DNA of 64,000 bases from NCBI GenBank assembly GCA_030390025.1, contig CM059431.1:126172001-126236000 (forward strand), given 5' to 3'. Made by a program: the position numbers and the translations under genes. Shown here one piece after another: positions 2,018 to 59,734 of the stretch; position 1 is the stretch's first letter, and the number at the start of each line of letters is the position of its first letter. The stretch is from Squalus acanthias. Lineage: Eukaryota. The notes beneath the pieces are model-generated. The model had not been told where the DNA came from and made no database searches. It worked only from the letters and a program-made list of their open reading frames with translations.

Positions 2018-3705
2018 TGTAGAATTCGCAATATATCGCGATTTTATAAATAAGGAGAAAAACACATAGTTTCGTTCAAACAGCTTTATTTCAGCAGAAT
2101 GGTGTCAGGTTTTCAAAGTGGACACAAGCAGCCTGTAAAATGGCCGCCACGCCTCGTGGCGGAACATTCTAGACTTTTCGACAAGCAGACAAGATGGCGT
2201 TCCAATAAACATTTGTGCAAGATCGATCAAGACTAAGCACATTTAAGATAATACACGAGACATCATGGGTTTGCAGTATACACATAAATACTGAAATCGG
2301 TCTCCCAGGTGCGAATAAGGGCTATTGTACCAAGTAATCAAGAACCCATCCAAAGACATTAATATGCAAAATCCCAACGACTCTACGATGAGAGAGCCGT
2401 TAGCGGGTAGTTACAGAAAACATTTGGGAGCCCCAAAACCCCTCCAGGGAGAACACCGACCGATTACACAATGGGAAAAATATTAACAGGTACTCAGACA
2501 GTTACGAGTATCCCCGAAACCCATTAAAACGGAGATCACCCTGTACAGGAAATTTGAGCGCCAAACCCTAACAAAAGAAAAGACATTGAGGTTGGGCGGG
2601 AAAAGGAAGAGTTTTGCACTATAACTGCAAGCTACAACCGTCCATCTTTCTCTTATCCTCTTGGCTCTTATCCTGCTGCTCGTGCTCTTGACTCGCCGTC
2701 TTGTTCCTGCTTGCCTCGTGTCTCTGCCTCTTGCAGCTTGAAAGACTGTTGAACTTTACGATCCGCCAGGATCTGCCTCTGTGTGGAACTGGGCTGTGAA
2801 GCCTTGGAACGGGCGCACCATCCCGAGAAGTCGGTAAACGGTGTTGGAACCGAAGGCCCGAGATGAGATGAGATGAGATGAGATGAGATGAGATGAGAAG
2901 AGAAGAAGACCATACGTATCGCCACGGTCAGTAAGCTCCGACCGCGCCTGTAGGTCGAATAGACACTTTCCTTGCCCAGGAAGACCATCTTTGAATTTTA
3001 CAGAATTGCCAGGAAGACTATTCTTCGAATTTTATCGCATCAGTGCGAGGGCACATGAAGACTCTTTTTTGAGTAGAGTCGGAACTCCGAGGACAACACA
3101 GATCTTCATGACAGCAGACGGTCCAGCCTGCTAGCCGGAGCAGAAATGAGTAAACAAGTGGGGTACAGAGACCCCTGATCAACACGTGGGTGATCAGGCG
3201 CTGCGGTGAAAAACATCCGATCAGAGTTTTCGGAATTCTCCGAGTTATCACGAGTGGTGAGCATGAGTCTCGATCCTACAAATCTAGCTTAGAGCAGGTA
3301 TTGATAGGGGAGGGTTTAAGTTTTAAGGATAACTGTAATATGTGCCCCCATTTACGATGTGTCGTTCGTTCCTCGTTTCCCTGAAATTAGTTACATAACT
3401 GCGTGTAAGATTGTACTGTCATTAATCTGTGCTTATGACATGTATTTCGTAATCTTAAATAATATGCAATAAAGATTTTCCATTTCGTACTATTCAACCG
3501 GGTCTACCCGAGTTTTCTCTCCATTACTGCTCTCGCATCTAAGTCCAGTGTCAGAACCGTAAGGGCGAGTGGGTCGAACCACTCACAGGTGTCTAGTGCT
3601 CCCAGACTGGCTGGAGACCAGAACAGGCAACAAGGCCTAAACTCGCACTAGCATCCAGGCTGCACAGAGCCACACGAATCCCACAGGTTCAGAGAAACCC
3701 TTACA
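2018..3705 (+). mobile_element. Solo LTR of the provirus B family
   Basis: Colinear with the B LTR, TGTAGAATTC...CCCTTACA, TSD GACC. Confidence 0.95.
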
Positions 3706-22480: not shown

Positions 22481-22635
22481 CCTGGAGTTCCAATATGACA
22501 CAGGAATAGCAAGCAATAGGTCTCAGCTGTCCCATCATTTTGCTTTAACATTTATCTACCTACGATATATCTGTATATATATATTTTTTAGTTTAATATC
22601 TCCTTACTCCTATTCATTATTTAAGTACACAGTGT

Positions 22636-32750: not shown

Positions 32751-33725
32751 TGTAAGGGGTTTTTGTCTCGGGCTTATTTGTAGGTCAGCCAGTTATGTTT
32801 TCCTGGGCTGTCCTGCACGCTGTGCGGTTGCGAATCGCTATCCCCTTCCTAGTTCTGAGCCCAGGACTTATTGAGCGGCGATAAGGACAAACGAACAGAC
32901 CCGTGGATTGGTGCGAGAAAACCAATGTTTATTTACAGAAGTAAAACTACAGAGAAACAGTATCATACGAAGAAAACAAAATCACTATGCAATACGGTTT
33001 TACACTTAACATGGGAGGAGAACGGACACATCGAGGGAAAATCCTAAAATTACAATTTTAGCAATATCCCCATTAATTCCCACCCTTATGCCTAACTAAA
33101 ATTGTCTTGCGACAGCCAGAAGATAATGCTCACCGGTGAAATGGATGGAAAAACCTGGCCCTGGACCCTGTTTCTGCCGTTGAAACGTGGCTACAAAGTT
33201 TCTGGTCTTCTTTCTTGGCTGCTGGCAGACAGGCAGGGTGAACCGGGATCCAGGCAGAGAGAGAGAGAGAGAGGGGCTGGGTCTTCCCAGTTATACGCTC
33301 GCAGTCGTCCTAATCTCCCTTCAGATCAGCTCATTTCTATTGTCTGATCTGGGCATGATGAATTTTAACTAAAGGTACTGATCTTGGCCCATCATGTTAG
33401 ATGGCCGGTAATTGTATCATACCAGTTCTTCAACTGTTCCCCTTTGTCCGACAGGTTCGATGATTGTCCAGCACAGTCTCAATATCCCCGCTGATTATTT
33501 GAGCAAACACCTTGAAAGCCTTATGCGTAGACCTGATTGGGTTTGTCCCCATTGCATCGGAATACACAAGCTGATAGTTTGCCAGCGTCTGAAAAGCTCT
33601 TGGTCACAAGGTCTGACCGCAGCCATGCCCTGGATTTTAAAACTCAGTCAGACCAGGGTTCCTTATTAATAAGTCCAACAAAAATCTTCGGGGGGGGGAC
33701 ACATGAAATTTTGCGAATCCTTTCA
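32751..33725 (-). repeat. 3' LTR of provirus A (975 bp)
   Basis: Direct repeat of 39722-40700 with multiple substitutions and small indels. Preceded on the minus strand by a G-rich PPT. Confidence 0.95.
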
Positions 33726-34064: not shown

Positions 34065-36413
34065 TCACGCGAGTGTCTCGTCTACCCGAGCATACTGGTC
34101 CCTCCAAACCCTTTGGGTTCTTGCTACTGCCTCGGGACCCCTTTTCCTACACTGGACGCAAACAAGGTAGGGGACGATCCTGAGCTGACAAATTACAAGC
34201 ACGTGTGATGCCAGACGAATCCAGGAGGGGACCTCGATATTCTCAAAGATGTCCCACCAGGGTCGGGTCGTAATATCCAGAATATCAGCCCCTATCTGGA
34301 TAGTCTTCTGTTCCAGTGTATAAAAATGCTTTTGCAACACCACTACGGCTCTTAATAGTTTAATGAGGTGTTCTGGGAGAGGGGGAATCTGGTAGCCGAA
34401 GTGAGCCACATACTTTTGGAGGTTGGTGAAATTCTCTCTTACAGTTAGGTGAACCGTGGATGGTTCAGGTATGGGGACAATTCGTTCCTGGGCCACTTGA
34501 ACTTCTGCCTTGGGTTTAAAGCAGAAGCTGCTGTCACTCACCGCACACCAGCTGTGCTGTCCATGCTGGTAGTGAGACGGTCCTGTGGTGATGCAATATG
34601 TCCCACCTCCTATATATGCTACCTGTGGGGGAACATGGCCTTGTGCCATGGCTTCCATGGTACAATTTATAGGTTTCGCGTCAGCAGCTCTGAACCCGCA
34701 TTGTGGTTTCGAATAGGCATGCAAGTGCTGGGGACACAGGATGATGTGTGCTCCCCGGCTACGGCATCCCGAGAGGTCAGTACCCGTCATAGCGTGATCC
34801 CACTTTATGACGTAGGGCGGGACCGCTGTAAAACGAACGTGTACACCCCCCTGAATGACACCAATGTTCTCCACCCTGTATACTGGCGTGGGTCGGGCCG
34901 TCCCGCCCATGACCGGCATCCTTACTATTATCCCCATGATAGTGTGGTTGGAACGTCCACAGTCCATTGGGACTGGGTAGGCCTCGGAAGCTAGTCAGAG
35001 CTGGCACGGGCTTAATGCGTTCTCAAAAGGGTGGAAGGCTGCGAGGTGCTTGTTGCTGATCCAGGAGGGGACCAAACCCTGTTTTAAGTCCTCCAGATTT
35101 CTGCGGCCCTCGCCCAGCAACCATGCCCCGTACAGTACGCACACCTCGTTTTGCGCAGCCTGGTCAGACGTATTCCGATCCTCCCTAATGAGCGCATTCA
35201 CCATCTTTGCATGTATCTCCAGCTCCGCTATGATCTCCTTTAGATGGAGAGTCATGGCCTGGTCTTCATGCAGTTTCGAACCCACTACCTTGTTCTCATC
35301 ATTTAAGACCTTCTTTAATTGGGTCTTCAGACCGTTGATCTGCGTCTGTAGTTCAATGTCGTCTAAACTATTAATAACTGAAGACCCCGCATTAAAACCC
35401 GTTAAAACATCATTAACAATACCCCTTCTCTGTCTCCCCACCCCGTCCCAAGCCTCGTGGCTATGTGTATACAATTTGGTCTTATCGATCTCCGCAAAAT
35501 CGAATTCGTAAAACTTTTGAAATGTTTTCCTTAAGAGGGCTTGATATAGTTTAGCGGTCTCTGCAGGGCACCACACGGGCAAGTGCACCTCAGTGAGATT
35601 TAAGATCACCGAGTCCATCGCGTAATGCACCCCTTGATAGAGCACCTGGTCTGTGGGTACCAGCACCAGGCCGTTCCCTGGTCCCTTGGTGGTGGCGGGG
35701 CATCCCTCTGCTACAGTCCGTGATGTCGGGGTCGTGGGCAGGGGCTGTCGGGGACGGGTCACTAATTCAGTGGCATTAACCGAGATTGGGGAGTATGGGA
35801 TCGCGCATGCATCCTGGCGCGACCCCCAGTCCATACCCCTCCCGTTATCCTGCCACTGGCTGTGGAAAATGATGGAAATGCCCGTGGGGCAGACTCTCTC
35901 TGAACCCCACATACAGACATAGATCCCCTGATCCGGTTCCCACCATTTGTCCCAGCACACACTTAACCCTCCCTGGGTCCCCGTGATGGTCCTGTGGGTG
36001 TCGTTCCCTAACCTTTCCCATTCTACCCTGGGGTTCCCCATGTCTTTGCTTAATTTTCTGAGCCACCACCACCTATCCAGGGGAATGTTGCCCTTACATG
36101 ATAAACAAATCCTTTTGCCCACGGTGACGCTGATCCTTGGGGTGACGATCCGTATCCTTGGGCACTGGAGGGAGGCCTCCCCATATGTAAAACCGGTCTG
36201 GCTCGAGTTCTGGGTCGAGTTTGACCCCAGCCATCCAGGCCAGCTCCCCTCGTGAGTATACGAGGCAATTTCATCCGCCTCGTGTAGGCCACTTCCATCG
36301 TGGGCTAGGGGTGCCGTCCTTCTGGAGCATCCAAAGATGCGGTGGTCCTCGGTGTCGCCCCTTCTCGCGAGGCTCAGCCCAGACAGGGCGAGCAAGATCA
36401 GGCCTCCGAACAT
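34065..36413 (-). pseudogene. env: env of provirus A, full length with one in-frame TGA at 34995-34997 (Arg in B)
   Basis: ORFs 34995..36413 and 34065..34967 share a frame and are colinear with Env B. TM and cytoplasmic tail are present. Confidence 0.92.
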
Positions 36414-36428
36414 TTCCCTTTTAATTGC

Positions 36429-36447
36429 CTGAAAAAAAAATAAAGAA
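36429..36447 (-). promoter_or_regulatory. Candidate env splice acceptor (provirus A)
   Basis: Minus strand reads ttctttatttttttttCAG|gcaattaaaagggaaATG. The equivalent in B is ...tgatcaCAG at 55215-55217. Confidence 0.65.
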
Positions 36448-36806
36448 CACCTAGCCAGGCTCCCTATAGGCTCCTTGGCTGGGGTGAAGTGTGAGCGGGT
36501 CCCTCGACCTCAGCTCACATGGACAAACACACATACACTGGAACGGTTCCATCTTAAAACTGCTATACGGTTCCGCACCTTAAAATCAAACTCAACAATC
36601 TAACTTAAAACTATAAACTTCTCAGACCAAGTTCTGTACATTCGCCGCCCGTCTCCGAGCGGCTAGCTTAAACTCTGTCAGGACTGCGGCAGGCTGCTCC
36701 CTGCAGCGTGGCTGTACGGACCCTTACTTCTGGTCCCTCACAGCCTGCGACTGTTGGCTGGGGACCTGTGTCTTTTAACTTAACTTTTGCTCGGGAGGTC
36801 ACCCCT

Positions 36807-37793
36807 TTAAACCGGCGACCATGCCTTCCTAGGTTGGGGTGTCCGAGGGGACCTCCTAGGAAGTGCTATAGGTGGGGCTACCCTGGCGAGCAGACCCTTG
36901 CCGTGGGTCGCAGTCCTCGCTGGCTGGGGGCTTTTCCCCCGTGGCTCCTCCCCTCCCAAGTCTGAGCTGGGGACAGGCAATCCCTCACTGCCTGCTGCTG
37001 TTGGCTGAGAGTCCTCGCCTCCAGGTTCAAAACCTGGGTCGGGGGCGGGGCTATCTGGTTCGGGCTCCTCCTCCTCCCCACCTGAGTCCCAGAAGAGAGG
37101 GGGGGTGGTTTGAACAGGGGCCTGGGTGACTCCTCCCTCAAGACAGGCCACTGCGCCTGCTTGTGCAGTCTGTGAACTGAGACCTGCTGGGAGCTGAGTA
37201 CTTCTAACCTTGGGGTGGTCCACCCTTGCTGGCTCCTCCCCTTTGTCGGGTTTAAACAGTTTGCACTGGTTAATGCTGCTAGCAGCCTGCCAGTGAACCT
37301 GTTTTAAAACCTTGTCCGCTGCCTCAAACGGACCTTCTATGGACTCTCCATTCTCTCTCTTTACCAGGACGGCCTTAAGGACGGGATCCTGGGCTTGGAC
37401 CTGCTTTAAGTCCGGGGCCAAGGCTACCCCCTGTGTGCCTCCCTTGTCCCAGATTGCGGCTACCGGACCTGCTTTGTAGGGATTCCAGAACTCTCCTTCC
37501 CTGGCCCCCTGCTTGGCTGACTTGTTGGCCTTTTGGTTACCCTCCCACGTGGTATGGAGGGATCCTAAATCTATGTCCAAAGGTTTGGACATTGCCCCAG
37601 CCTGCTTGTTCCCTGTGAATCCCATTAATCTGTACGGGACCCCGTTAGACCTGGGTGAATTGGTCAGGCCTTCCGAATGGACCACCGTGCTGGCAGCTCC
37701 GGTGTCCACCAAACATCTCCCCTGCAATTTCTCCACCCCCATCTTACCATCGTATCCCGGGGGACACAGGTGGACAGGCTGCGCTGGTTCTAG
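36807..37793 (-). pseudogene. pol: Internally deleted pol of provirus A (half PR + RNase H end + IN fragments + tail)
   Basis: LVDTGAAS...LHTTW is joined to EGNQKAN...GPF, then to LKQVHWQAA, then to NQCKLFKP. RT and the IN core are absent. Confidence 0.88.
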
Positions 37794-39718
37794 TCATAGG
37801 TCTGCGTTCTATGGGGCTGATGGGGTCAGAGCACCGGTGGTTGCTGCTATCTTCCCCTGACTGGCCAGGAGAACCCGCAGTGATTCTAGAACGCTCTCTA
37901 CTGTGGGGGTCCCAGTGTCTACCTTTGGGCCTGGAGCTGTGGAGCTCTTTCCCTTGGTGTCCTTCCAGGGGTTTTTGCAATCTTTGCGCCAGTGGCTGTC
38001 CTTCCCGCAGCCATAGCAGTTTAACTTATTCTGGGAGGGACGGTTTCCCTCCTGGTGCCACTCTTTCTTATTCTGGCCCCCAGGTTTAACCTCGTGGACT
38101 TTCCCTTTGGGCTGGGGCATCTCAATTCCCCTCCCGTTATTTCTAAATGCTACCGTGAGCTGGCGGATCACCATTTCTTCGGTGGTCTGGGGGTTTTGGG
38201 GGTCAAACCAGGCCACAGCCTGGGCTCGGATTTGGGGCAGGCAGTTCGTCATGAGACAACGGAGCCAGTGGGCCAATTGGTCTCTGTTGAGGAACATCCG
38301 CACTGGCGTTCCCGGGCACGCGCTCTGGTAGACTGGCCACAGCCTGTCTGCGAATGTCTGCGGGGACTCCACGGGGACCTGTACCGTTTTTTCCACTCGG
38401 GTGAACGGACTCCCATCATTTAGTCCCATGGCCTCCAATATCTCATCCCTTAACTCCTCGTAATCTTTCTGTCCCTTCTTACACTCATCCGATAGGGTTT
38501 GGAGGAGATCACTACCCAGAGAGAACAGCAGCATTTTTGCTTGTTCTGCCTCATCGCAGTCATTAACGCATGCTGCCTGCTCTATCTCCCAGAAATGTAG
38601 AGAGGGGTCCCCCCTCACTGTGAGCTTAGGGATGTGTCGAACCATGGCTCTGAGCTATTGGGTACCATGCGGCACTAAAAACTGGTTCTGGATTGCCCCT
38701 AGCTCCTCGCCATCGGCTGGCGGGCCATATCTCCGTTGTCGGAGGGGGTACACTGGTCCCGGACCCGGTTTATCCCCTAGGGCCTGCTGGATCTCCCATA
38801 ATGCTCCATCCTCCACCCCCCCTTGCTGCCAGGCCTCTTGAAAACTCGGGGCTCTGGGTGGCGGTCGTAAAACCTCTGATTCCCTAACCAGTGCCTTTCT
38901 GGGAGCTGCCTGTGGGACTTCCCTGCTTGGGTTGCTGGTAAAATCCAACTGGCCCATCTTCGGGCTGATGAGGCATACCATGCCCTTCGCCCTTACTAAG
39001 GCCATGCCCAAGCTTTCTATTTCTTGCCTGCAGGGGCCGTGGTCTGTGTCTTCAAACCCCTGGGCACAAGCCAGCTTATATGCTGCTTTTACTTCGCCTA
39101 CTTTCTCCTCCTGCTCTTTCAACTCTTGCGTGAGGCTGGAAATCTTGTCCATTAACCTAACCTCACTACCTCTCGCCTCTCTGACCTGGTATTCCAGGTG
39201 TTCCATCCTGTGCCTAGCGCTACTTTTGAGCTCTGCGATCCGGTCTTCCAGGCGCTCTGACTTTGCCTGGTGTTCCCTTTGAGCTTCAACGGCCCGGGCC
39301 CTCATACGCTCTAACTCAGCCTGATGGTCCCGTGCCGTCTGCACCCTCTCTTGGCTTACTGCCTGGAGGGCCACTACTACTTTCTCCTCCGCTGCAGTCT
39401 TTTCCTGCAGCTCTCGGGTCAACTGTTTGATCTTGGCTGCCCGTGTTGCAACAGCACGGTCTAACACTAAAACCTGCTTTTTCAAACACATGAGCCAGAC
39501 CGCTTTTTCAATACCTCTCCTGTACTCTTTACTTGCTGTCCACTGGGCAGCTGCATCTAGGGGGCGCTCGGCTTTTAACATATCGCACACCCTTTTTTTG
39601 CGATATTAACTTTGCCGCACACATAGGTAGATAACCTCCACTCCATTGCGGATTCCTCCTCCGCAACACGGTCTGCCTTATCACACGCTTTCGCATGGGC
39701 TTCTACCTGGCTCGCCAT
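37794..39718 (-). pseudogene. gag: gag of provirus A (1-nt deletion at ~39592; premature TAGs at 38655 and 37809)
   Basis: ORFs 38655..39590 and 37809..38645 align with Gag B (EKAVWLMC, HGMVCLISP-like, DPSxHFxEIEQ, CYGCG..HWRKxC). Confidence 0.9.
39707..39717 (-). promoter_or_regulatory. Primer-binding site, tRNA-Arg(ACG)-type (11-nt match)
   Basis: TGGCGAGCCAG is complementary to ...CUGGCUCGCCA of tRNA-Arg(ACG) as recalled. The match breaks after 11 nt. Confidence 0.7.
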
Positions 39719-39721
39719 TTC

Positions 39722-40700
39722 TGTAAGGGGTTTTTGTCTCGGGCTTATTTGTAGGTCAGCCAGTTATGTTTTCCTGAGCTGTTCTGCCCGCTGTGCGGTT
39801 GCGAATCGCTATCCCCTTCCTAGTTCTGAGCCCAGGACTTATCGAGCGGCGATAAGGACAAACGAACAGACCCGTGGATTGGTGCGAGGAAAACCAATGT
39901 TTATTTACAGAAGTAAAACTACAGAGAAACAGTATCATATGAAGAAAACAAAATCACTATGCAGTACGGTTTTACACTTAACATGGGAAGAGAACGGACA
40001 CATCGAGGGAAAATCCTAAAATTACAATTTTAGCAATATCTCCATTAATTCCCACCCTTATGCCTAACTAAAATTGTCTTGCGACAGCCAGAAGAAGATA
40101 ATGCTCACCGGTGAAATGGATGGAAAAACCTGGCCCTGGACCCTGTTTCTGTCGTCGAAACGTGGCTACAAAGTTTCTGGTCTTCTTTCTTGGCTGCTGG
40201 CAGACAGGTAGGGTGAACCGGGATCCAGGCAGAGAGAGAGAGAGAGAGGGGCTGGATCTTCCCAGTTATACCCTCGCGGTCGTCCTAATCTCCCTTCAGA
40301 TCAGCTCATTTCTATTGTCTGATCTGGGCATGATGAATTTTAACAAAAGGTACTGATCTTGGCCCATCATGTTAGATGGCCGGTAATTGTATCATACCAG
40401 TTCTTCAACTGTTCCCCTTTGTCCGACAGGTTCGATGATTGTCCAGCAGTCTCAATGTCCTCGCTGATTATTTGAGCAAACACCTTGAAAGCCTTATGCG
40501 TAGACCTAATTGGGTTTGTCCCCATTGCATCGGAATACACAAGCTGATAGTTTGCCAGCGTCTGAAAAGCTCTTGGTCACAAGGTCTGACCGCAGCCATT
40601 TTATGCCCTGGATTTTAAAACTCAGTCAGACCAGGGTTCCTTTTAATAAGTCCAACAAAAATCTTCGGGGGGGACACATGAAATTTTGCGAATCCTTTCA
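39722..40700 (-). repeat. 5' LTR of provirus A (979 bp)
   Basis: Minus strand reads TGAAAGG...CCCCTTACA, followed by GAAA and the PBS. Confidence 0.95.
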
Positions 40701-46884: not shown

Positions 46885-48594
46885 TGTAGAATTCGCAATA
46901 TATCGCGATTTTATAAATAAGGAGAGAACACATAGTTTCGTTCAAACAGCTTTTATTTCAGCAGAATGCTGTCAGGTTTCAAAGTGGACACAAGCAGCTT
47001 GTAAAATGGCCGCCGCACCTCGTGGCGGAACATTCTAGACTTTTCGACAGGCAGACAAGATGGCGTTCCAATAAACATTTGTGCAAGATCGATTAAGACT
47101 CAGCACATTGAAGATAATACACGAGACATCATGGGTTTACAGTATACACATAAATACTGAAATCGGTCTCCCAGGTACGAATGAAAGCTATTGTACCAAG
47201 TAATCAAGAGCCCATCCAAAGACATTAATATGTAAAATCCCAACGACTCTACGATGAGAGAGCCGTTAGCGGGTAGTTACAGAAAACACTTGGAAGCCCC
47301 AAAACCCCTCCAGGGAGAACACCGACCGATTAAACAATGGGAGAAATATTAACAGGTACTCAGACATTTACGAGTAGCCCCGAAACCCATTAAAAACGGA
47401 GATCACCCTATACAAGACATTTGAGCGCCAAACCCTAACAAAAGAAAAGACATTAAGGTTGGGCGGGAAACGGAAGATTTTGTACTATAATTACAAGCTC
47501 CAAACCGTCCATCGCTCTCTTATCCTCTTATCTTGCTGGTGTTCATCCTCGTGGCTGCTCCTGTGCTCTTGACTCGCCGTCTTGTTCCTGCTTGCCTCGT
47601 GTCTCTTTTAAAAGACTGTTGAACTTTGTGATCCGCTCGGATCTACCTCGTGTCGTGTCGCGAAGACCTGTGTAGAACTGGGCTCTGAAGCCTTGAAGCG
47701 GGCGCACCATTCCGATAAGTCGGTAAACGGTGTCGGAACCGAAGGCCCGAGACGAGATGAGATGAGATGAGATGAGATGAGAAGAGAAGAAGACCATACT
47801 TATCGCCACGGTCAGTAAGCCCCGACCGCGCCTGTAGGTCGAATAGACATTTTCCCTGCCAGGAAGACTTCTTTGAGTTCTACAGAACTGACACAGGAAG
47901 ACTCTTCTTTGAATTTTATCGCACCCGTGCGAGGGCACAGGAAGACTCTTTTTTGAGTAGAGTCGGAACTCCGAGGACAACACAGATCTTCATGACAGCA
48001 GACGTTCCAGCCTGCTAGCCGGAGCAGAAACGAGTAAACAAGTGGGGCCAGGAGACCCCCTGATCGACACGTGGGTGCTGCGGTGAAAAACATCCGAGCA
48101 GAGTTTTCGGAATTCTCCGAGTTATCACGAGTGGTGAGCATGAGTCTCGAATCCTACGAATCTAGTTTAGAATAGGTATTGATAGGGGAGGGTTTAAGTT
48201 TTAAGGATAATTGTAATGTGCGCCCCCATTTACGATGTGTCGTTCGTTCCTCGTTTCCCTGAAATTAATTACATAACTGCGTGCAAGATTGTACTGTCAT
48301 TAATCTGTGCTTATGACATGTATTTCGTAATCTTAAGTATTATGCAATAAAGATTTTCCATTTCGTACCATTCAACCGAGTCTACCTGAGTTTCATCTCC
48401 ATTACTGCTCTCGCATCTAAGTCCAGTGTCTAGAACCGTAAGGGCGAGTGGGTCGAACCACTCACAGGTGTGTCTAGTGCTCCCAGACTGGCTGGAGACC
48501 AGAACAGGCAATAAGGCCTAAACCCGCACTAGCATCCAGGCTGCACAGAGCCACACGAATCTCACAGGCTGAGAGACGGTCAGAAACCCTTACA
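46885..48594 (+). repeat. 5' LTR of provirus B (1710 bp)
   Basis: TG...CA termini. GC box at 47461, TATA-like TATAAT at 47486, AATAAA at 48346, internal (GAGAT)n. Confidence 0.96.
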
Positions 48595-48598
48595 GAAA

Positions 48599-50404
48599 AT
48601 GGCGACCGCGGCAGGACACTGGCAGCGAGAGGGTAGTGTGTTAGACTTTGGTGTGAATGTACAAAATGTTATGCAGGAAAAGATAGCAGATTATGTGTTC
48701 GGAAAGGTAAATTTAACTAAGAAATGGATAAGTGACCTGTTAGCGGATAAGAGTCCACTAGAGGCAGCCGAGAGGTGGACAGATAGTAAGGAACATAAAA
48801 AGACAGTCGAGAAAGCAGTCTGGTTAATGTGTTACAAAAGGCAGGTCCAGATTTCAAACCAAGTCATTACAGCACAAACAGCTCGGATCAGGCATTTAGA
48901 GGAGGAAATGGATGAGAAGGTCTCTGGAGGGGAGTTGCTCATTAGGAATTTAAGTGTGCTGCACCAAGAACGCCAGGAAATCACCAGTCACCATAAAACA
49001 AGGATAGATTACCTCGAGTGCCAGGTCACTGAGGCAAAGTTAAGTGAGGGCAGACTAAAGGAACGATGTGCCCGCCAAGCTGCCCAGATAAGAACCCAGG
49101 AAGAGAGCTTAATGGGGGTTAGGGCAGCATATAAGTTGGCCCTTGAGGATAAGTTTCAGGGGGCCGATCATAGCGCCTGCCAACAGGAGATAGAGCACCT
49201 TAAAAGGGCCGTGAACAAAGCGCACGGCATGGTGTGCCTTATCAGTCCGTCAGCACACCAGCCGCTAGTAAATGAGGAATTTCAGAAATCCCCACCAAGT
49301 AAAGCAAAGGAAGTATTGGCCACTGCGCCCTCCGCGCCACCCAGCTATTCGGAAACCTGGGTAAGGGAGGAAGTAGTGGAAGAAACGAAAGAGCCCACTG
49401 AGGGAGAAGTGGAAAAGGGACCGTTGTATCCGGTAACGGGTATAAAAAGGGGCCCAAACAGAAACGGGGAGGAAGAAGGGGTTCTCCTCAACCAGCTTGT
49501 GTTGCCTCACAGCTCACACCAGCTGAGAGTTATGATAAATCACGTACGGAAGCTGACCGAGTCAGACGACCCTTCCGTACATTTCAGAGAAATTGAGCAA
49601 ACCGCAGCCATCAACGGCTGCGATGATGGGGAAACAGCAAAAATGCTGTTATTTTCGTTAGGCAGTTCAATCCTTCAGTGTCTCTCGGACGAGAGCAAGA
49701 GGGGAACCAAGACTTATGAGGCATTGAAAAATGAGGTCCTAGAAGTGTTGGGGGCGGACGATGAAGGTCCGTTTGCTAGAGTGGGACAGACAGTGCAGAT
49801 GGAGGGAGAACCCCCGAAGGTTTTTGCCGACAGGCTGTGGCCAGTATATCAGCGCAGCTGTCCAGGTGCGCCAGAGCGCGACGCTGTGGACGGCGCCGGT
49901 TTAAATCATTGGCTCAGGTGTATAGTAGCCAACAGTTTGCCAGCCGTCAGAGAACAGGCAAAGGCGTGGTTTGATCCCAATGACCCCAACATTACGGAAG
50001 AGTCGGTCTTGAATCGACTCACGATAGGATATCGCAATATCAGGGGTATGGGAACACGTCCCCTTAAGGGAAAAGTACATGAGGTACGACCCGCAGCCCC
50101 GGCTCAAAGGGAGTGGCATCAGGAGGGTAACCGCGCCCCGCAGGCAAGTAATGCTTGTTACGGGTGTGGGAGGACAGGGCACTGGCGCAAGAACTGCAGG
50201 AACCCTTGGAAGGATTCCAGGGATAAAAATCCCGCAGCCCGAGCCCAGATGCCTGTCTCTGTTAGGGAAGCTAGTGCACCCACCCCTCCCGACGACCTCG
50301 AATCAGTGTTGGGAGCCATGCGCAACTTCATGAGTGCGCATGGAAAAGTGGCGGTTGCTACCGGCCCCGTAGGTGCCGCAGGACCGTCTAACCAGACCCA
50401 ATGA
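48599..50404 (+). CDS. gag: Gag, 601 aa: N-terminal coiled coil, capsid-like region, single CCHC knuckle
   Basis: Intact ORF right after the LTR. Zinc knuckle CYGCGRTGHWRKNC (Cx2Cx4Hx4C). Confidence 0.92.
   Translation: MATAAGHWQREGSVLDFGVNVQNVMQEKIADYVFGKVNLTKKWISDLLADKSPLEAAERWTDSKEHKKTVEKAVWLMCYKRQVQISNQVITAQTARIRHLEEEMDEKVSGGELLIRNLSVLHQERQEITSHHKTRIDYLECQVTEAKLSEGRLKERCARQAAQIRTQEESLMGVRAAYKLALEDKFQGADHSACQQEIEHLKRAVNKAHGMVCLISPSAHQPLVNEEFQKSPPSKAKEVLATAPSAPPSYSETWVREEVVEETKEPTEGEVEKGPLYPVTGIKRGPNRNGEEEGVLLNQLVLPHSSHQLRVMINHVRKLTESDDPSVHFREIEQTAAINGCDDGETAKMLLFSLGSSILQCLSDESKRGTKTYEALKNEVLEVLGADDEGPFARVGQTVQMEGEPPKVFADRLWPVYQRSCPGAPERDAVDGAGLNHWLRCIVANSLPAVREQAKAWFDPNDPNITEESVLNRLTIGYRNIRGMGTRPLKGKVHEVRPAAPAQREWHQEGNRAPQASNACYGCGRTGHWRKNCRNPWKDSRDKNPAARAQMPVSVREASAPTPPDDLESVLGAMRNFMSAHGKVAVATGPVGAAGPSNQTQ
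48600..48617 (+). promoter_or_regulatory. Primer-binding site, tRNA-Arg(UCG)-type
   Basis: TGGCGACCGCGGCAGGAC, 5 nt after the LTR. It is complementary to the 3' end ...GUCCUGCCGCGGUCGCCA of vertebrate tRNA-Arg(TCG) as I recall that sequence. Confidence 0.85.
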
Positions 50405-53400
50405 CTAGAGCCCGCGCAGCTCGTCTACCTGTGTCCGCTCAGCTATGATGCGTGGAAGCGACCCCTGGTGGAAATGGAGGTAGAGAAACAGAAGGGTAGT
50501 TATTTGTTAGACACGGGAGCTTCTTGCGCCGTGATTCATACAGATAGCCCTTTTGACTCACCGCTATCTACCAAGGTCCCATTCACATTAGCGGGATTCA
50601 CGGGAAAAGAACAGGCTGGCGCGTTCTCCTTTCCGCTATCCATTCGTTTGGGGGCACTTCACATCAAGTGGAAGTGCATATTGATGGAATGGCAGGAGGG
50701 GGGTGGAAGAGGTATCCTCGGGTCCGATCTTCTATCAGGACACGGGATCCTCGTGGACCTCAGAAATCATTGTCTCTGGGGGGCTAAGAGTGAAAAAGGC
50801 GAGGTCGTGGTAATTCCGGGGGAGGAAGAAACAGGGGTCCTGTGTACCATGCAGCCATCCGGAGGCTACGACCTCGGGCTCATGGTCGCAGATGTCCCAA
50901 CGGACATGCAAACGTACGTGTCAGATAATATGCACGCGTTTGCAACCCACAAGCACGATTGTGGGAGGGTTACCGGGTTGGAGGTCAGCGTAGATGGGGA
51001 CCCCATGACCCGGCCCCAAAAACAGTATAACTTCCCCAAAGAAGCAGAACCCGATATGGAGACAGCAATGTCCTCCTTGGTGCAGCAGGGCGTGTTGAGG
51101 CCAATAGCCACACACGTGAACTCCCCATTATGGCCGGTTAGGAAGCCGGATAATTCGTGGAGGGCCACGGTGGACTACAGAGTCCTTAACAGTAACATTC
51201 CCGCCTGCGCGCCCACGGTAGCAGCAGTTGCTGACCTAATAGGGAGTATCCCAGCGTCTGCGACCACGTTCACGGTGCTGGATATCTCGAACGGTTTTTG
51301 GTCCATCCCGCTGCGGCGAGAGGACCAGTACAAGTTTGCCTTTACTTTCAAAGGACAACAGTACACATGGAACTGTCTGCCACAGGGTTTCCACAATAGC
51401 CCCAGTATTTTCCATCAGTGTATGGCAGGAAGTTTAAAGGAGTTTAGTCAGCCCAATCAGATAGTGCAGTACGTGGATGATTTGCTCCTATTTACGGATT
51501 CAAGGGAGGAGCATGGACCACTGCTGGCCGAGTTATTGGAGCTGTTAGCGAGAAAGGGTTTTAAAGTAAACCCTAAGAAAGCACGTATCGGTCAGCAGGA
51601 AGTAAAATTCCTGGGGCTGACCATTCGCGCTGGGGAAAGAGCCATAGATAAGGCTAGGAGGGAGTCGGTGCAAGAGTTACCAATTCCTAACAACATAAGG
51701 GGTGTGAGGTCCTTCTTGGAACTGACCGGTTACTGCAGGGATTTTATCGAAGACTATGCGGCCACAGCGGCGCCGCTCCTCCGACTCCTCCATAAGGGAG
51801 TGGAGTGGTCTTGGGACGAGGGCTGCCAAGCAGCCTTCGAGAAGTTAAAAAGGGATCTGCAGACCGCGCCAGCCTTAGGGGCCATAGATGGGGGGAAGGA
51901 GTTTTTCCTGGAGGTAGCTGCCAGCGGGGACAGCTTGAGCGCTGTGCTGCTCCAAGAGCGTCACGGCAAGCTGAGGCCGGTTGTCTATTCGTCCAGGGTG
52001 TTAACGGATGTGGAGAGAAGTTTCTCCAATTGCGAAAGGCACCTTTTAGCCACGCATTGGGCTGTGAAAAGATCAGCGATCTTCACAGGGCTCTCTCCCA
52101 TCACTCTCCTCACCCACCACACACCAACTAAGATGCTTCTAGATGGGAGGATTAAAGATGGGACCGTAAGCAGCGTGCGTTTTGCGCGCTGGACCATTCT
52201 TCTTTCCCAGATGGATCTTAGAGTAAAAGGTCTTTGCGAGCCCAGGCTTGCGGCCAATTTGGTATACCCCGGTACAGCCCACCGATGTTCGGCGGAAGGG
52301 GTGTGGGACGTCAACATAGGTTTGCGGGCCGGGATACATCCCACTGGGCGCGAGATTTATGTTGATGGTTCTAGCACAGTATCTGCTGGCGAACGACTCA
52401 CAGACTGTGTAGTTTATGACCCTGCGGCAAACCTTGCCCTGGCGATCAAGCTCCCTAGCACCATGAGCGCGCAGCAGGCTGAGCTGTCTGCTGTGGTGTA
52501 TGTTGTTACCCACCCAGACATCTTCCCAACCCTATACACGATTTGCTCGGACAGTATGTTCACATGTAATTCGTGTACGGAATACCTGGCCATTTGGTCC
52601 CGCCGTGGATACACCTCCGCGGACGGGCGACCTTTAACGGTGAAGCCCTTGCTGGAAAAGATCCTAGCAGCAGTAGGGGATGAAGGGGAGATTTTCATCC
52701 ATAAGGTGAAAGCTCACTCCTCCACAGAGCCCCGTGGGGAGGGCAACCAGCAGGCAGATGCGCTAGCCAGGGAAGGTGCCCGCAACGGCATTTTCTGGGA
52801 CCCCTATGGGACCAGACCCATGGCAGCGATCCAAGGCAGGGACGGGAATCCCGGGAACCCCAGGGTAGCATTGCCCCTAGACCTTAAGACCGTCGAAACC
52901 CAGGATCCCGCCCTAAAAGCAGTCCTAAAAACCATTGCTGAAGGGAAGCAAGTAGAGGGTCCGTACAGTACGGCAACCCTCTCAGTTAAGGAAGGCATGC
53001 TGTTCCGCGAGGGGCAGTGGGTTGTGCCGCAGCAGCACAGGAGGGAATTCCTCCAGTTGGCTCACGAGGGACCAGGGGCAGGGCACCCCGGGCCCGAGGT
53101 TACCTGGCAACGGGTAGAGCAAGCGGGATGGTGGCCAGGGCTCAGGGAACAGGTCCGCGAGTTCTGTGCAAACTGTCTTGTGTGCGCTGCAAACAACCCA
53201 GACCCCCAGAAAAGGAAAGTGCCCATGGGGCACGTAAGAAGGGTAGAGGGACCATGGCAGTCGATACAGATCGACTATATAGGGCACCTGCCTACCACCC
53301 AGGGAGGCTATAAATACTGCCTCGTCTTGGTGGATGTGTTTTCCAAATGGGTGGAAGCCTTCCCCTGTCGAACAGCTACGGCACTGGGTACTGCAAAAAT

Positions 53401-54931
53401 CTTGGTCCGGGAAGTGTTCTCGCGGTGGGGACTCCCCCGTTTTGTGGAGTCAGACCAAGGGAGTCATTTCACCGGACAGGTGATGCAGAACACCCTCATG
53501 CTTTTGGGCATTGAAGGGAAGTGGCACGTAGCACACAATCCCCAGTCATCCGGGATTGTTGAACGCATGAACCGGACCCTGAAGGAGAAATTGAGGAAAG
53601 AGACTAGGAACTCGCCCCAAAAATGGGCGGAAGTTCTGCCTTTAGTCCTCATGGGGGTCCGGGCCAGTCAGTCAAAAAGTACGGGGTACTCCCCGCACGA
53701 GGTGATGACTGGGAGGCTCATGCGAACCCCCACCCATGTGCTAGCGCCGGTGCTCACTGAGGGTCAGCTCCAAGAGATAAGCAGGGACAAGTTCGCCCAG
53801 ACCATCTTGGAGCGCCTGAAGCAGGTTTATGAGCAGGCGGCTGGGAACATGGGAAGGCAGCATCAGGGCAATCGCCTGTTGCTGGAACCCCGCAAAACGC
53901 GGGAGTGGGAAGTAGGAGACCAGGTTATGGTCAGAAACTACGCTAGAGTAGGGAGTCTGGAACCACTGTATATGGGACCCTACAACATTGTAGATTAGGC
54001 GAGTCCCATGATATACGCCGTAAAGGTACCTCGGCGCACTAAGTGGTTCCATGTAAACCAGTGCAAACTGTACAAGCCAGGTGCGCAAGGGAAAACCACA
54101 GGGGTAAACCCTGTGAGTGGGGACGCGCAGCCCCAGGTAGGACCACAAGGCACACAGGCAGGCAAAGCAGCTTGCATCAGGGGAGGAGACATCCTGGAAA
54201 ATTGTGAAACATTTTTGTGGGGTTGGGAGTCAGATGAGGGAGAGTTCTTGGAACTCGAGTCAGATGAGGATAGTGATGAGGACGAGTGGGGATCGGGGAA
54301 CGCAAGGGTCGCCCCCGATTCAGGTATAGGGAGGACAGGGGCTGCAGATAGAGATCCACACAGGGTGGACACCGAGGCTGCAGGTCCCGAACACAGGAGG
54401 GAGGAGTTAGGGGAGGCGGAGCCAGCCGCTGTGAGACCACAGGGAGTGACGGTGAGAACCTCAGAGCCCGAGCCGCCCACCTTGAACGTCCTGCCCTCGG
54501 GGGAGGTAGGGATTGCGAGTGAAGGGCCGCCTGCTGGGCCGAGCAGGGCAGTGCCACAAGCTGCAAGTCCCGAGGTCAGGGAGGCGGAGTCAGGGGAGGC
54601 GGAGCCAGTGACTGTGGTGGGACCACAGGTCGTCCCGGCGAGAGTCTCGAACCCCGGTCCGTCGGTCCTGGGATTCCTGCCCCCGACAACTCCTCGTAGG
54701 TCAAGTAGAGAACCCCAGCCCAGGAAGATGTGGGTATGGCCCCAGACGGTCCCAAGGCGTAGACTCAAGGTTAAGGCAGCCCAGATAGAACCCGGTCCCA
54801 TCGCAGCAGCAACAGGCTGCGGCAGATCAGAGGAAGGGGTCAGTGCAGCAACAGGCTGCGGCAGATCAGAGGAAGGGGTCAGAGCCCTCCCACCGTCGGG
54901 AAGAGCTCGCAGCAGCCTTCTCAAAATTTAA
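50405..54931 (+). CDS. pol: Pol (PR-RT-tether-RNase H-IN-long tail), in frame with gag, with one internal TAG at 53996-53998
   Basis: PR: LLDTGAS. RT: LDISNGFW, LPQGFHNSP, YVDD. Tether: FLEVAASG...CERHLLA. RNase H: YVDGSS, QQAEL, SDS, KVKAH, GNQQADALA. IN: HEGPGAGH...CLVC, IDYIG, SDQGSHF, GIVERMN, GPY. ORFs 50468..53998 and 54008..54931 share one frame. Confidence 0.93.
54806..54883 (+). repeat. 2 x 39-bp in-frame tandem repeat in the Pol tail (AATGCGRSEEGVS/R)
   Basis: Direct duplication of gcagcaacaggctgcggcagatcagaggaaggggtcag. Confidence 0.9.
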
Positions 54932-55230
54932 AGGGAGCCGCCCTGAGAACGGGCGGCGCTGTACAGGAATAAGTTTAGGATAGGTTTCTAAGTTTATAGT
55001 TTAAGGTTAAGAATAAGTTTATAGTTTTAAATCAGGTTAAGTTTGTAGTTTAATTTTAACAGAAAATGGTAAAATGATGGGAGTTAGAGATAGGTTTAGT
55101 TAAAGTTTATTTAGTGAACATTGAAGTTTACGTGAGGCGAGGTCTGGGGACCCGCTCACCCTTCACAAAAGCCAGAGTCTCTTGCGAGGCTGGCTACCTC
55201 ATTCTATCTGATCACAGGAACCAAGGAAGG

Positions 55231-57581
55231 ATGGAACGAATTCTAGTATTGCTTGCGGCAATCGGATGTGGATTGGCCTATCGAGGCCGCACCAAGGATG
55301 TCGTGGTGTTTGGATGCTCCGGGGACACGGCCCCCATCGCGGTGGATGGGACCGGAAGACGGGAGGCTGAGGAGACCACCACCTATTTCCACAAGGGAAG
55401 GTGGCCAGGATGGCTGGGAACGAACTCAACGGAGTATTCCAGCACATCGGGGTTTGCCTACCAAGAGACTTCTTTAATGTGCCCCAAAGTAAGGATCATC
55501 GCACCCAGGATCAGCGTCACCGTCGGCAAACGGATTTGTTTGACTTGTAGTGGGAATGTCCCATTGAGCCGATGGTGGTGGCTGCGAAAGCTGAGCAAAA
55601 ACATGAGGAACTCTTCGGTCGAGTGGGAACGACTGGGTAATAATACCCATCGGACAATTACGGGGACAAACGGACAAGTGAGAGTCTGTTGGGACAAATG
55701 GTGGGAACCGGATGAGGGAATTTATGTATGTATGTGGGGGTCAAAGTACGTTTGCCCCAAAGGCATCTCCATATTTTTCATTAATCAATGGCAGGATAAT
55801 GGACAGGGGATGAGGTGGGATGCGAGCACCAGGGGGTGCGGAGCCCCATTCTCCCCGATCCCAGTAAATGCCACTGAACTCATTACGCGCCCACGCAAAG
55901 CCCCGCCCACGATTCCGGTGGTTCTAGCTAAGGAAGAAGGGTGCCCTAAAACCAGTAAGGGACCCGGGAATGGTTTGGTACTGGTCCCCACAGACCAGAT
56001 ACTATTTCAGGGGGTCCACTACGCGGTGGCCTCGGTGATTTTAAATCTCACCGAGGTGCGGTTACCAGAGTGGTGCCCCAAAAAGACGGAACAGTTGTAT
56101 CAGGTCCTGTTGACCAAGATGTTCAGACAATTTTACGAATTCGATTTCGCGGAAATTGATAAAACAAGTTTGTACACCGCACCACATGAAGTTTTGGATC
56201 AAGTAGGGAGGCAAAGAAGGGGTGTAGTGAACGACGCGTTCACTGCTTTTAACACGGGTACATCTGTGGTCAACGCTCTAGACAGTGTGGAGCTGCAGAC
56301 CCAGATTAATGGTCTAAAGACGCAATTAAAAGACATTCTAACAGATGAGAATAAAGTGGTAGGGTCGGGTTTACACGAGGACCAAGCCATGACTCTCCAT
56401 TTAAAGGAAATTATAGCAGAGTTGGAGAAACATGCAAAGACGGTAAATGCCCTGATTAGGGAAGATCGGAATGCATCCGATCAAGCTGCGCAGAACGAGG
56501 TGTGCGTGCTTTACGGGGCGTGGTTACTGGGCGAGGGCCGCAGTAATTTGGAGGATTTAAAACAAGGTTTGGTCCCGTCCTGGATAAGTAACAAACACCT
56601 GCGGGCGCTCCACCCTTTTCAGAACGCATTAAGTCCGTGCCAGCTCAGGCTAGCTTCAGAAGCATACCCAGTCCCCGTGGACTGCGGACAATCAAACCAT
56701 ACTATCATGGGTATAGTTTTACATATGCTGGTTTTGGGCGACACAGCAAAGCCCGCCCCGGTGTATCGGGTAGAGAACATTGGTGTCATTCAGGGGGGAG
56801 CCCACATTCGCTATGCAGCGGTTCCACCCTACGTCATCCGCTGGGAGCAAACGATGACAGGTACAGATCTCTCTGGTTGTCGTGGCAGGGGAGCACACAT
56901 AATACTGTGTCCCCAGCACTTGAATGCCTTTTCAACACCACAGTGCGGGTTCAGAACGGCTGGCTCCAAGTCCATGAATTGCACCATGGAGGCAATGGCA
57001 CAAGATCATGTGCCTCCGCAGGTAGCATACATCGGGGGTGGAACATATTGTGTTACCACTGCAGCGCAACACTACCAGCATGGAAACCGTAGCCGGTGTC
57101 CGGTGAGTGACAGCAGTTTCTGTTTCAAACCCAGGGCGGAAGTTCAAGTAGCACAACAGCGAATTGTCCCAATCCCTGAACCATCCACTGTTCATCTAAC
57201 AGTAAAAGAGAATTTCACCGACTTGCAGCGATTCGTTGCACATTTCGGATACCTCATTCCCCCTCTCCCTGAACACCTCACCAAGCTTTTAAAAGCCGTC
57301 GCGGTGTCACAAAAACATTTTTACACACTAGAGCAGAAAACTGTCGAAATAGGAACAGACATTCTGGATATAGTAATTCCACCGTGGTGGAATCTGTTCA
57401 CCAATATTGAAGGCCTTCATGGATCAGGATAGCCTCCCACATTTTAGTCGTATGCCAAGTTTTTATTGTAGTGTACCTATTGGTCGTACATTGTAAAAGA
57501 GACAAACGCCTCACCAAGCATGAAAACACGGGAGAGTGGCGAGAACGTTACGTGCGCGTGCACGATGAAAGCACCGTGTGA
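55231..57581 (+). CDS. env: Env: F-like class I fusion glycoprotein with N-terminal Ig-like domain; 1-nt frameshift at ~57412 before the TM anchor
   Basis: Signal peptide MERILVLLAAIGCGLA, furin site RQRR|GVVNDAF, heptad region, Cys-rich DLSGC...ILCP...QCG. The TM and tail (PSWIRIASHILVVCQVFIVVYLLVVHCKRD...STV*) continue in another frame at 57414-57581. Confidence 0.88.
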
Positions 57582-58020
57582 TCGGAAAATGGCGTCGCTC
57601 CCGCTCGCCACGTGCGCCGCGGAAGTTTGTACTCGATCATGCTTTTCAAAGACTGTAAATACGTTTGGAACTCGACATGTTTTAAGAGTTGGTGTTGATT
57701 ATTTTGGTGATGGTGTTGTAGTTAAAAATGATTGTTTGGTTTTGGTTTTGTTTTTCCTTTCCCTAAATAAAAAGATGAATGTACAGGTGACACGAGAGGC
57801 ATCGGCCTGGTTACGCCGGGAAGGAAAACAAGTGGTGTAAGTTTAAAGGCAAATAATGCCTACGGTGATATAAAATGTAATTTTCTTGGGAAATAAGGAC
57901 GACGCAAAGACCCTAGATCGTTTAAGTTATGGGATTAAATTTTCTGGATTTGGAGAAAATCGAGATAATATTGCTCACCACAATATTTTTGATACGATAA
58001 GCGGAGTTATTCGCATCAAC

Positions 58021-58029
58021 AGGAGGGAC
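58021..58029 (+). promoter_or_regulatory. Short polypurine tract of provirus B
   Basis: AGGAGGGAC abuts the 3' LTR. Provirus A has AGGGGGGAC in the same position. Confidence 0.7.
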
Positions 58030-59734
58030 TGTAGAATTCGCAATATATCGCGATTTTATAAATAAGGAGAGAACACATAGTTTCGTTCAAACAGCTTTTA
58101 TTTCAGCAGAATGCTGTCAGGTTTCAAAGTGGACACAGGCAGCTTGTAAAATGGCCGCCGCACCTCGTGGCGGAACATTCTAGACTTTTCGACAGGCAGA
58201 CAAGATGGCGTTCCAATAAACATTTGTGCAAGATCGATTAAGACTCAGCACATTGAAGATAATACACGAGACATCATGGGTTTACAGTATACACATAAAT
58301 ACTGAAATCGGTCTCCCAGGTACGAATGAAAGCTATTGTACCAAGTAATCAAGAGCCCATCCAAAGACATTAATATGTAAAATCCCAACGACTCTACGAT
58401 GAGAGAGCCGTTAGCGGGTAGTTACAGAAAACACTTGGAAGCCCCAAAACCCCTCCAGGGAGAACACCGACCGATTAAACAATGGGAGAAATATTAACAG
58501 GTACTCAGACATTTACGAGTAGCCCCGAAACCCATTAAAAACGGAGATCACCCTATACAAGACATTTGAGCGCCAAACCCTAACAAAAGAAAAGACATTA
58601 AGGTTGGGCGGGAAACGGAAGATTTTGTACTATAATTACAAGCTCCAAACCGTCCATCGCTCTCTTATCCTCTTATCTTGCTGGTGTTCATCCTCGTGGC
58701 TGCTCCTGTGCTCTTGACTCGCCGTCTTGTTCCTGCTTGCCTCGTGTCTCTTTTAAAAGACTGTTGAACTTTGTGATCCGCTCGGATCTACCTCGTGTCG
58801 TGTCGCGAAGACCTGTGTAGAACTGGGCTCTGAAGCCTTGAAGCGGGCGCACCATTCCGATAAGTCGGTAAACGGTGTCGGAACCGAAGGCCCGAGACGA
58901 GATGAGATGAGATGAGATGAGATGAGAAGAAGACCATACTTATCGCCACGGTCAGTAAGCCCCGACCGCGCCTGTAGGTCGAATAGACATTTTCCCTGCC
59001 AGGAAGACTTCTTTGAGTTCTACAGAACTGACACAGGAAGACTCTTCTTCGAATTTTATCGCACCCGTGCGAGGGCACAGGAAGACTCTTTTTTGAGTAG
59101 AGTCGGAACTCCGAGGACAACACAGATCTTCATGACAGCAGACGTTCCAGCCTGCTAGCCGGAGCAGAAACGAGTAAACAAGTGGGGCCAGGAGACCCCC
59201 TGATCGACACGTGGGTGCTGCGGTGAAAAACATCCGATCAGAGTTTTCGGAATTCTCCGAGTTATCACGAGTGGTGAGCATGAGTCTCGAATCCTACGAA
59301 TCTAGTTTAGAATAGGTATTGATAGGGGAGGGTTTAAGTTTTAAGGATAATTGTAATGTGCGCCCCCATTTACGATGTGTCGTTCGTTCCTCGTTTCCCT
59401 GAAATTAATTACATAACTGCGTGCAAGATTGTACTGTCATTAATCTGTGCTTATGACATGTATTTCGTAATCTTAAGTATTATGCAATAAAGATTTTCCA
59501 TTTCGTACCATTCAACCGAGTCTACCTGAGTTTCATCTCCATTACTGCTCTCGCATCTAAGTCCAGTGTCTAGAACCGTAAGGGCGAGTGGGTCGAACCA
59601 CTCACAGGTGTGTCTAGTGCTCCCAGACTGGCTGGAGACCAGAACAGGCAATAAGGCCTAAACCCACACTAGCATCCAGGCTGCACAGAGCCACACGAAT
59701 CTCACAGGCTGAGAGACGGTCAGAAACCCTTACA
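58030..59734 (+). repeat. 3' LTR of provirus B (1705 bp)
   Basis: Copy of the 5' LTR. By eye it differs by about 4 substitutions and one 5-bp unit at the microsatellite. Confidence 0.96.

Follow-up and report, generated by a model that had tools for sequence, protein, structure and literature searches.

Several vertebrate retroviruses carry gag and pol in a single frame interrupted by a stop codon. In chicken Ovex1 and in snakehead retrovirus (SnRV), the two genes are split by an amber codon with presumed suppression (PMC2717909); SnRV has UAGGGC at the junction and a coiled-coil-type Gag with one zinc finger. Gag-pol junctions with UGA are known from the epsilon-related SSSV (UGAAGA), ZFERV (UGACGA) and RMEV (UGAAGU) (PMC13517186), and XtERV-S has an in-frame TGA with presumed suppression (PMC8278194). 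Here we describe a gag-pol junction with UGA followed by CUAG in an endogenous retrovirus (ERV) of Squalus acanthias. The window, that is, the whole stretch analysed, comprises 64,000 nucleotides (nt) (assembly GCA_030390025.1, contig CM059431.1, positions 126,172,001 to 126,236,000) and holds two proviruses with long terminal repeats (LTRs): B on the plus strand (46885-59734) and A on the minus strand (40700-32751). In B, the junction very probably directs programmed type II stop-codon readthrough that sets the Gag:Gag-Pol ratio.

B shares the single-frame gag-stop-pol arrangement with SnRV-like ERVs but differs from SnRV and Ovex1, which use UAG. With SSSV, ZFERV, RMEV and XtERV-S, it has in common an in-frame UGA and an aquatic host, although UGACUA is found in none of the three listed hexamers. 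The statement in the initial annotation of this window, made from the sequence alone, that gamma- and epsilonretroviruses read through UAG therefore understates the precedent for UGA junctions in these four elements. Elephant-shark CmiERV lineage I reads CAA-TGA-CAT-G in frame, as judged by eye from the supplement (PMC4422223); it has the same CAA-TGA-C as B, but its UGA-CAU-G and gamma-type Env contrast with the UGA-CUA-G and putative F-like Env of B. In a further elephant-shark ERV, CAA-TGA-CTC, again read by eye, precedes the protease motif in frame by about 40 codons and may reflect decay (PMC4422223).

Outside retroviruses, UGACUA is known from alphaviruses, a triatovirus and mammalian genes (PMC13517186). 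Alphaviruses have UGA-CUA at nsP3/nsP4 (SINV, and ONNV with UGA-CUA-GAC), and A and B match ONNV over UGACUAGA; the vertebrate genes OPRL1, OPRK1, AQP4 and MAPK10 have UGA-CUAG, a stop context identical to that of the element. The leakiness that the initial annotation ascribed to this context in alphaviruses and vertebrate genes is borne out by published work (PMC13517186, PMC4132726): UGA-CUA alone gave 1.5% readthrough, with the motif conserved across vertebrates (PMC4132726), and UGACUAG at least about 1.3%, with SINV and CHIKV cassettes reaching 6-14% (PMC13517186). The element differs from these type II systems in that its signal stands at a gag-pol junction, is known from sequence alone and has a 3′ stem-loop only as a candidate. 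The type III gammaretroviral arrangement (UAG-G, an 8-nt purine-rich spacer and a compact pseudoknot) is not what is seen here, as the element has UGA-C and no Rfam match. Among fungal retrotransposons, the fission-yeast Ty3/Gypsy elements Tj1, Tcry1 and Tosmo1-3 strictly conserve GAA-TGA-CT(A/G), and Tj1 transposition requires the gag stop (bioRxiv 10.1101/2022.12.06.519325). These elements and Candida Tca2 (PMC2194720) resemble the present element in their in-frame gag-TGA-pol order but lack env.

A UGA-CUAG stop between gag and pol

The gag gene of B (48599..50404, +; 601 codons) encodes a charged helical N-terminal half, a capsid-like region and a single CCHC zinc knuckle (50153-50200) and ends in TGA. 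Its reading frame is free of stops from 48533 to 50404, and the same frame is open again from 50405 to 53998 (+; 1197 codons), where pol encodes protease, reverse transcriptase (RT, with YVDD), tether, RNase H and integrase. The candidate type II signal at the junction reads CAA-TGA-CTA-GA (50399..50409, +), with UGA at 50402-50404 and CUAG at 50405-50408, and the full segment 50399-50419 is CAA TGA CTA GAG CCC GCG CAG. Both the letters and the open frames thus confirm the initial annotation of B gag as ending CAA-TGA-CTA-GAG with pol in frame beyond it.

On the minus strand, A reads TGA CTA GAA CCA GCG CAG from 37796 (TGA-CTA-GAA, 37788..37796), in a frame common to A gag and the protease remnant. 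The motif reported there by the initial annotation stands, but A is a weaker witness than was claimed, with a TAG upstream and most of its pol deleted. Copy A is disabled, and it cannot use the candidate readthrough signal because an in-frame TAG (37811-37809) ends its gag five codons before the TGA and gag holds further stops.

The 8-mer TGACTAGA has three matches in the window against 1.99 expected and so is not rare by itself, and CTAG occupies about 0.24% of positions in element and window alike. The third match, at 23402-23409, lies outside any long open reading frame and was set aside as a chance match. What goes beyond chance is the position of the motif, at an in-frame gag-pol boundary that is homologous between subfamilies only 42% identical in Gag and 51% in protease.

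Conservation of the stop and its context

Sequence contigs aligned to 50250-50600 at 80% likeness numbered 461 (242, 154, 40 and 25) and came from four organisms: 4 of 20 runs, one per organism code A-D, of which three are of DNA type and one of unknown kind. Variation was considered in the strongest 40 of 47 variant rows, with differences below 3% falling under the listing threshold. Across all four runs, none of these 40 rows falls within 50401-50409. Copies with a sense codon at this place or lacking CUAG, which the initial annotation had named as counter-evidence, were not found in the contigs from the four organisms. At 50421, 50473 and 50528, another letter stands at 100% depth in every run, marking these as changes private to B; since such private changes do show while the stop has no row, the stop is not damage private to B.

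Variation comes close to the junction on both sides, at 50393, 50396, 50400, 50410 and 50413. Of these, 50410 and 50413 are third-codon positions in the two codons that follow CTA; every run, and likewise the comparison of A with B, shows synonymous changes at both. The fourfold-degenerate third base of CTA itself is invariant in the rows considered. Insertions and deletions at 50392-50396 occur in matching numbers, so the frame would hold, and pol-side variants are mostly at third positions (11 of 19). The stop is bridged by 3 of the 32 listed pieces, with at least 31 letters on each side. In three runs, some contigs resemble the upstream flank of A; their alignment starts at 50399-50401, and the unaligned ends carry no stop where A has its TAG. 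A and B have the same 9-mer at the junction while most 20-nt windows in the 130 nt upstream show about 35-55% nucleotide identity. From these comparisons, the stop and its CUAG are a family trait, a case that rests chiefly on the stop lying at the homologous boundary of such divergent subfamilies.

Probable readthrough and other possible routes to Pol

Production of Pol needs the stop to be bypassed, because the protease fold begins before the first AUG of pol. The Pfam RVP match covers pol residues 17-111 (50453-50737) with an E-value of 7.6e-5, which passes the curated threshold; pol has its first Met at residue 24 and its catalytic Asp at residue 36. A start at that Met would cut the protease fold, and since gag and pol lie in one frame, any earlier AUG must cross the stop. 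No slippery heptamer occurs near the junction of either A or B, and a −1 frameshift is ruled out by this absence together with the shared frame.

In the mechanism that we propose, the unspliced RNA would be translated from the gag AUG and most ribosomes would halt at the UGA at 50402 to give Gag. A minority of them, probably 1 to 10%, would decode the UGA owing to the CUAG that follows and continue in frame into Gag-Pol. The Gag:Pol ratio would be set in this way and the particle supplied with protease, RT and integrase, and the level may be raised by a 3′ helix. Residues put in at UGA are Trp, Cys or Arg. We infer the occurrence and level of readthrough, the inserted residue and any role of structure. 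Readthrough is favoured because UGA-CUAG supports it in vertebrate cells and because relatives have an in-frame stop.

Three other explanations of the stop were weighed. Pol could be made from a spliced RNA that skips it, loosely as in foamy viruses, with an acceptor at 50419 (phase 0) or 50442 (phase 2). The CAG at 50417-50419 is indeed common to A and B and has no variant row, the AG at 50441-50442 is preceded by a tract with pyrimidines at 11 of 15 scored bases, and the putative F-like Env is similar in class to that of foamy viruses (PMC11468914). The conserved AG (50418-50419), however, has a poor tract (7 of 15 pyrimidines), and the better one is missing from A. In foamy viruses, pol has a frame and an AUG to itself and is expressed from spliced RNA, and Gag lacks a zinc finger. 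B, by contrast, has no pol AUG ahead of the protease fold, although a spliced pol of the foamy type requires one, and it has a zinc knuckle and a shared frame as in SnRV. The contigs of the four runs, which come from a set with no run recorded as RNA, show no joints. Splicing would also leave the match to a known leaky context unexplained, and we regard it as very unlikely. Slightly less probable still is a bypass of another kind, such as an internal promoter, a restart of translation at the 50474 AUG or a process needing distant sequence. Such a route has a precedent in Candida Tca2 (PMC2194720); a Met stands at about the residue-24 position in A, B and a related protein (P0009), and an AUGA overlaps the stop (50401-50404). 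Yet a start at residue 24 would cost the protease profile its first strand, and the Pol so made would lack Gag for its packaging; a stop-restart at the overlapping AUG was rejected, as it enters a different frame that closes after 15 codons.

The least probable of these explanations is that the TGA is an old inactivating change in an amplified non-autonomous lineage whose autonomous copies have a sense codon. It would fit the non-autonomous state of A, the broken pol of B and the fused appearance of some relatives (P0014 of the coelacanth, and the 10 of 24 lokiretrovirus consensus entries that are labelled as one gag-pol gene; PMC7947760). Against it, the TGA is kept in two deeply diverged subfamilies and in four organisms, and elephant-shark CmiERV has one at the homologous place; pol remains open for 1197 codons beyond it, with variants mostly at third positions; and when fused Gag-Pol relatives of 989-3149 residues were sought, the single match among 8000 candidates was a protein consisting of Pol alone.

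Programmed readthrough is the reading that we prefer, and several observations count against it. Taken alone, the invariance of the 9-nt core does not reach significance (P about 0.28-0.35 with variants evenly spread, about 0.09 at the local density), A and B are no more alike at the junction (80-85% identity) than at the zinc knuckle, and copy A stops upstream of the signal. Differences below 3%, the seven weakest rows and low-depth A-type contigs lie below what the variant rows display. In reporters, the surroundings of the Tca2 gag UGA gave no readthrough (PMC2194720), and coelacanth P0014, known from a gene model alone, joins Gag to Pol with no stop in between. The downstream fold proposed in the initial annotation found no statistical support: none of seven junction fragments folds more stably than its shuffles (z-scores −0.93 to +0.56), and Rfam gives no match at the junction up to E = 1. 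For UGACUA contexts, a 3′ structure is conditionally required (PMC13517186).

Two small helices can be drawn in both A and B. A candidate 6-bp hairpin pairs 50414-50419 with 50429-50434 (50414..50434, +), 9 nt after the stop; its stability is low (−4.4 kcal/mol), and it does not dominate when longer stretches are folded. A candidate 7-bp helix pairs 50424-50430 with 50478-50484 (50424..50484, +) and shows one compensatory and one one-sided change between A and B, as well as an 18-nt indel in the loop, a comparison of two sequences only. These shared helices are possible structures offered as a lead only, because they depend on two sequences and the same bases are under protein-coding constraint.

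Relation to lokiretroviruses and to known readthrough signals

In-frame gag-stop-pol with presumed suppression is a known strategy, which limits the surprise at the present junction; what had not been listed is the type II UGA-CUA(G) context. The literature searched, with most subscription journals outside it, yielded no earlier report of UGA-CUA(G) in a retrovirus. A review of animal-virus readthrough from August 2026 gives, in its accessible sections, retroviral junctions only with UAG-G or with UGA in other contexts and describes readthrough in fish retroviruses as so far without experimental verification (PMC13517186). With the junction in B, the signals used by retroviruses would come to include UGA-CUAG of type II, by which the Gag:Pol ratio could be set through the leakiness of host termination alone, with no pseudoknot.

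The same context appears in lokiretroviruses. In the consensus sequences of Wang and Han 2021 (PMC7947760), UGA-CUA stands in frame before the protease in at least 5 of 24 entries: Ofa, Cne, Pyo, Sau (GG next) and Bsp (AG next). This count covers 300 of 318 supplement pages, in which line breaks hide matches, and 6 of the 14 separate-pol entries; the Ape consensus is without the junction. Thirteen of 17 TGACTAG matches in the supplement are not in-frame gag-pol junctions, and the coelacanth one is out of the pol frame. Ten of the 24 entries are labelled as fused gag-pol. Pol is annotated there from a later near-cognate codon, and the accessible main text is silent on readthrough and stop codons and names no cartilaginous-fish host (PMC7947760). 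Lokiretroviruses and B are alike in dual RNase H, NYNRIN/CGIN1-like Pol annotation and, if the lead on B Env holds, F-like Env but differ in RT clade, Gag and protease leader.

The occurrence of this context in lokiretroviruses opens the ancestral mode of Pol expression to comparative data. We consider it unlikely that UGA-C(UAG) readthrough is an ancient retroviral mode of making Gag-Pol, present on both sides of the deepest split (a lokiretrovirus subclade and the SnRV-like ERVs of cartilaginous fish); if it were, this mode may predate both UAG-pseudoknot readthrough and frameshifting. It is likelier that the two lineages converged on a signal of alphaviruses and vertebrate genes, given that other lokiretroviruses have the genes fused and that the stop in SnRV and Ovex1 is UAG.

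Classification of element B

By RT trees and by motifs compared by eye, B is best classified as a snakehead-retrovirus-like ERV. Xu et al. 2018 (PMC6001957) call the snakehead-retrovirus group clade Huo, and Han 2015 (PMC4422223) placed CmiERV lineage I of the elephant shark with snakehead retrovirus. The RT motifs ATHKHDCGR, LDISNGFWSIPL and LPQGFHNSP are common, by eye, to B and CmiERV lineage I. Among named proteins, Pol is best matched by 'NYNRIN-like' entries from frogs and coelacanth (about 40% identity). The first RT tree took in 116 of 181 RT-bearing proteins, those above 1720 residues being left out, and the second 63 proteins picked by hand from that set; named SnRV, foamy and ERV-L sequences are absent from both. 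In the second tree, B falls on the retrovirus side (ultrafast bootstrap (UFBoot) 83), with frog and coelacanth Pols (UFBoot 100) and turtle and bird Pols (UFBoot 95). Assignment to lokiretroviruses was rejected by both trees, in which a clade of P0082 (Labeo rohita), P0076 and P0149 (UFBoot 100) excludes B; the lokiretroviral label of these three proteins rests on species name and supplement motifs. The protein P0021, probably a chimeric gene model, changes place from one tree to the other. The tether and second RNase H present in B are common to all retroviruses and so are not diagnostic.

The only Gag relative found is P0005 of the skate Rhinoraja longicauda (1 match among 8000 candidates), which is 54% identical to B Gag, also ends in Gln at the same place and points to a host among cartilaginous fishes. 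A coiled coil in B Gag is hinted at by composition and by weak Pfam matches of this skate homolog only. In the coelacanth protein P0014 (Latimeria chalumnae), Gln-Gly-Cys-Gln occupies the position homologous to the stop and recalls UAG-G contexts; the joining of Gag and Pol there may be a true fusion or a gene-model artefact.

Scans of viral contigs and a first metagenome scan returned no relatives. A second metagenome scan returned 80 distant elements (23-40% identity), and TGA-CTAG was the preceding stop at none of 19 protease-motif sites in them.

Env looks F-type, as a lead only: language-model features lie at 0.93-0.94 to the Fusion_gly and Baculo_F clusters, Pfam gives no match, and a single-sequence structure model has a pLDDT of 32.6. 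Env of A and B are 72% identical, above Gag and protease, which suggests exchange of env between subfamilies or stronger constraint.

Structure of the proviruses and other elements in the window

Provirus B has a 5′ LTR (TG...CA; 46885..48594, +) and a 3′ LTR (58030..59734, +) of 1.7 kb that differ at 4 of 1706 aligned bases, with a purine-rich tract before the 3′ LTR at about 58018-58029 and a 4-bp target-site duplication, AACC (46881-46884 and 59735-59738). Its LTRs point to a very young endogenous retrovirus. There is no leader between LTR and gag: the gag ATG (48599-48601) overlaps the primer-binding site, which starts at 48600 (48599..48617, +), and the skate homolog P0005 begins at the same place. 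This overlap directly after the LTR occurs in both proviruses (48595-48617, +; 39721-39700, −). The primer-binding sites of A and B are unlike each other; we take both to be of tRNA-Arg type, and that of CmiERV lineage I is presumably of Ser type.

A premature TAG at 53996-53998 closes B pol inside the integrase C-terminal domain, and the remainder of that domain, with a long acidic, Pro-rich tail, follows in the same frame (53999..54931, +). Such an acidic Pro-rich extension occurs in both subfamilies (53999-54931; 36807-37330) and is poorly conserved except at its ends. The env of B (55231..57432, +) encodes a signal peptide, a weak Ig-like segment, a furin-type site and a candidate F-type fusion module, and its frame closes before the membrane anchor. 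Neither A nor B is a complete working element.

The 5′ LTR (39722..40700, −) and 3′ LTR (32751..33725, −) of A differ at 18 of 972 aligned bases, with GTGC as the target-site duplication. Its gag (37809..39718, −) is broken by a frame shift near the start and by stops at 38657 and 37811. The pol remnant (36807..37793, −) retains the first 90 residues of protease, the end of RNase H with the start of integrase, and the integrase tail, RT and most of integrase having been deleted. The env of A (34065..36509, −) has one internal stop.

A solo LTR of the B family lies at 2018..3705 (+), flanked by the target-site duplication GACC and differing from the B 5′ LTR at 88 of 1658 bases; the window also holds an LTR fragment of 75% identity (28921-29324). 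A long interspersed nuclear element with Pfam matches to endonuclease and RT lies at 18992-22522 (−) and is presumably CR1-like, and we take a transposase remnant at 23971-25105 (+) to be Harbinger-like.

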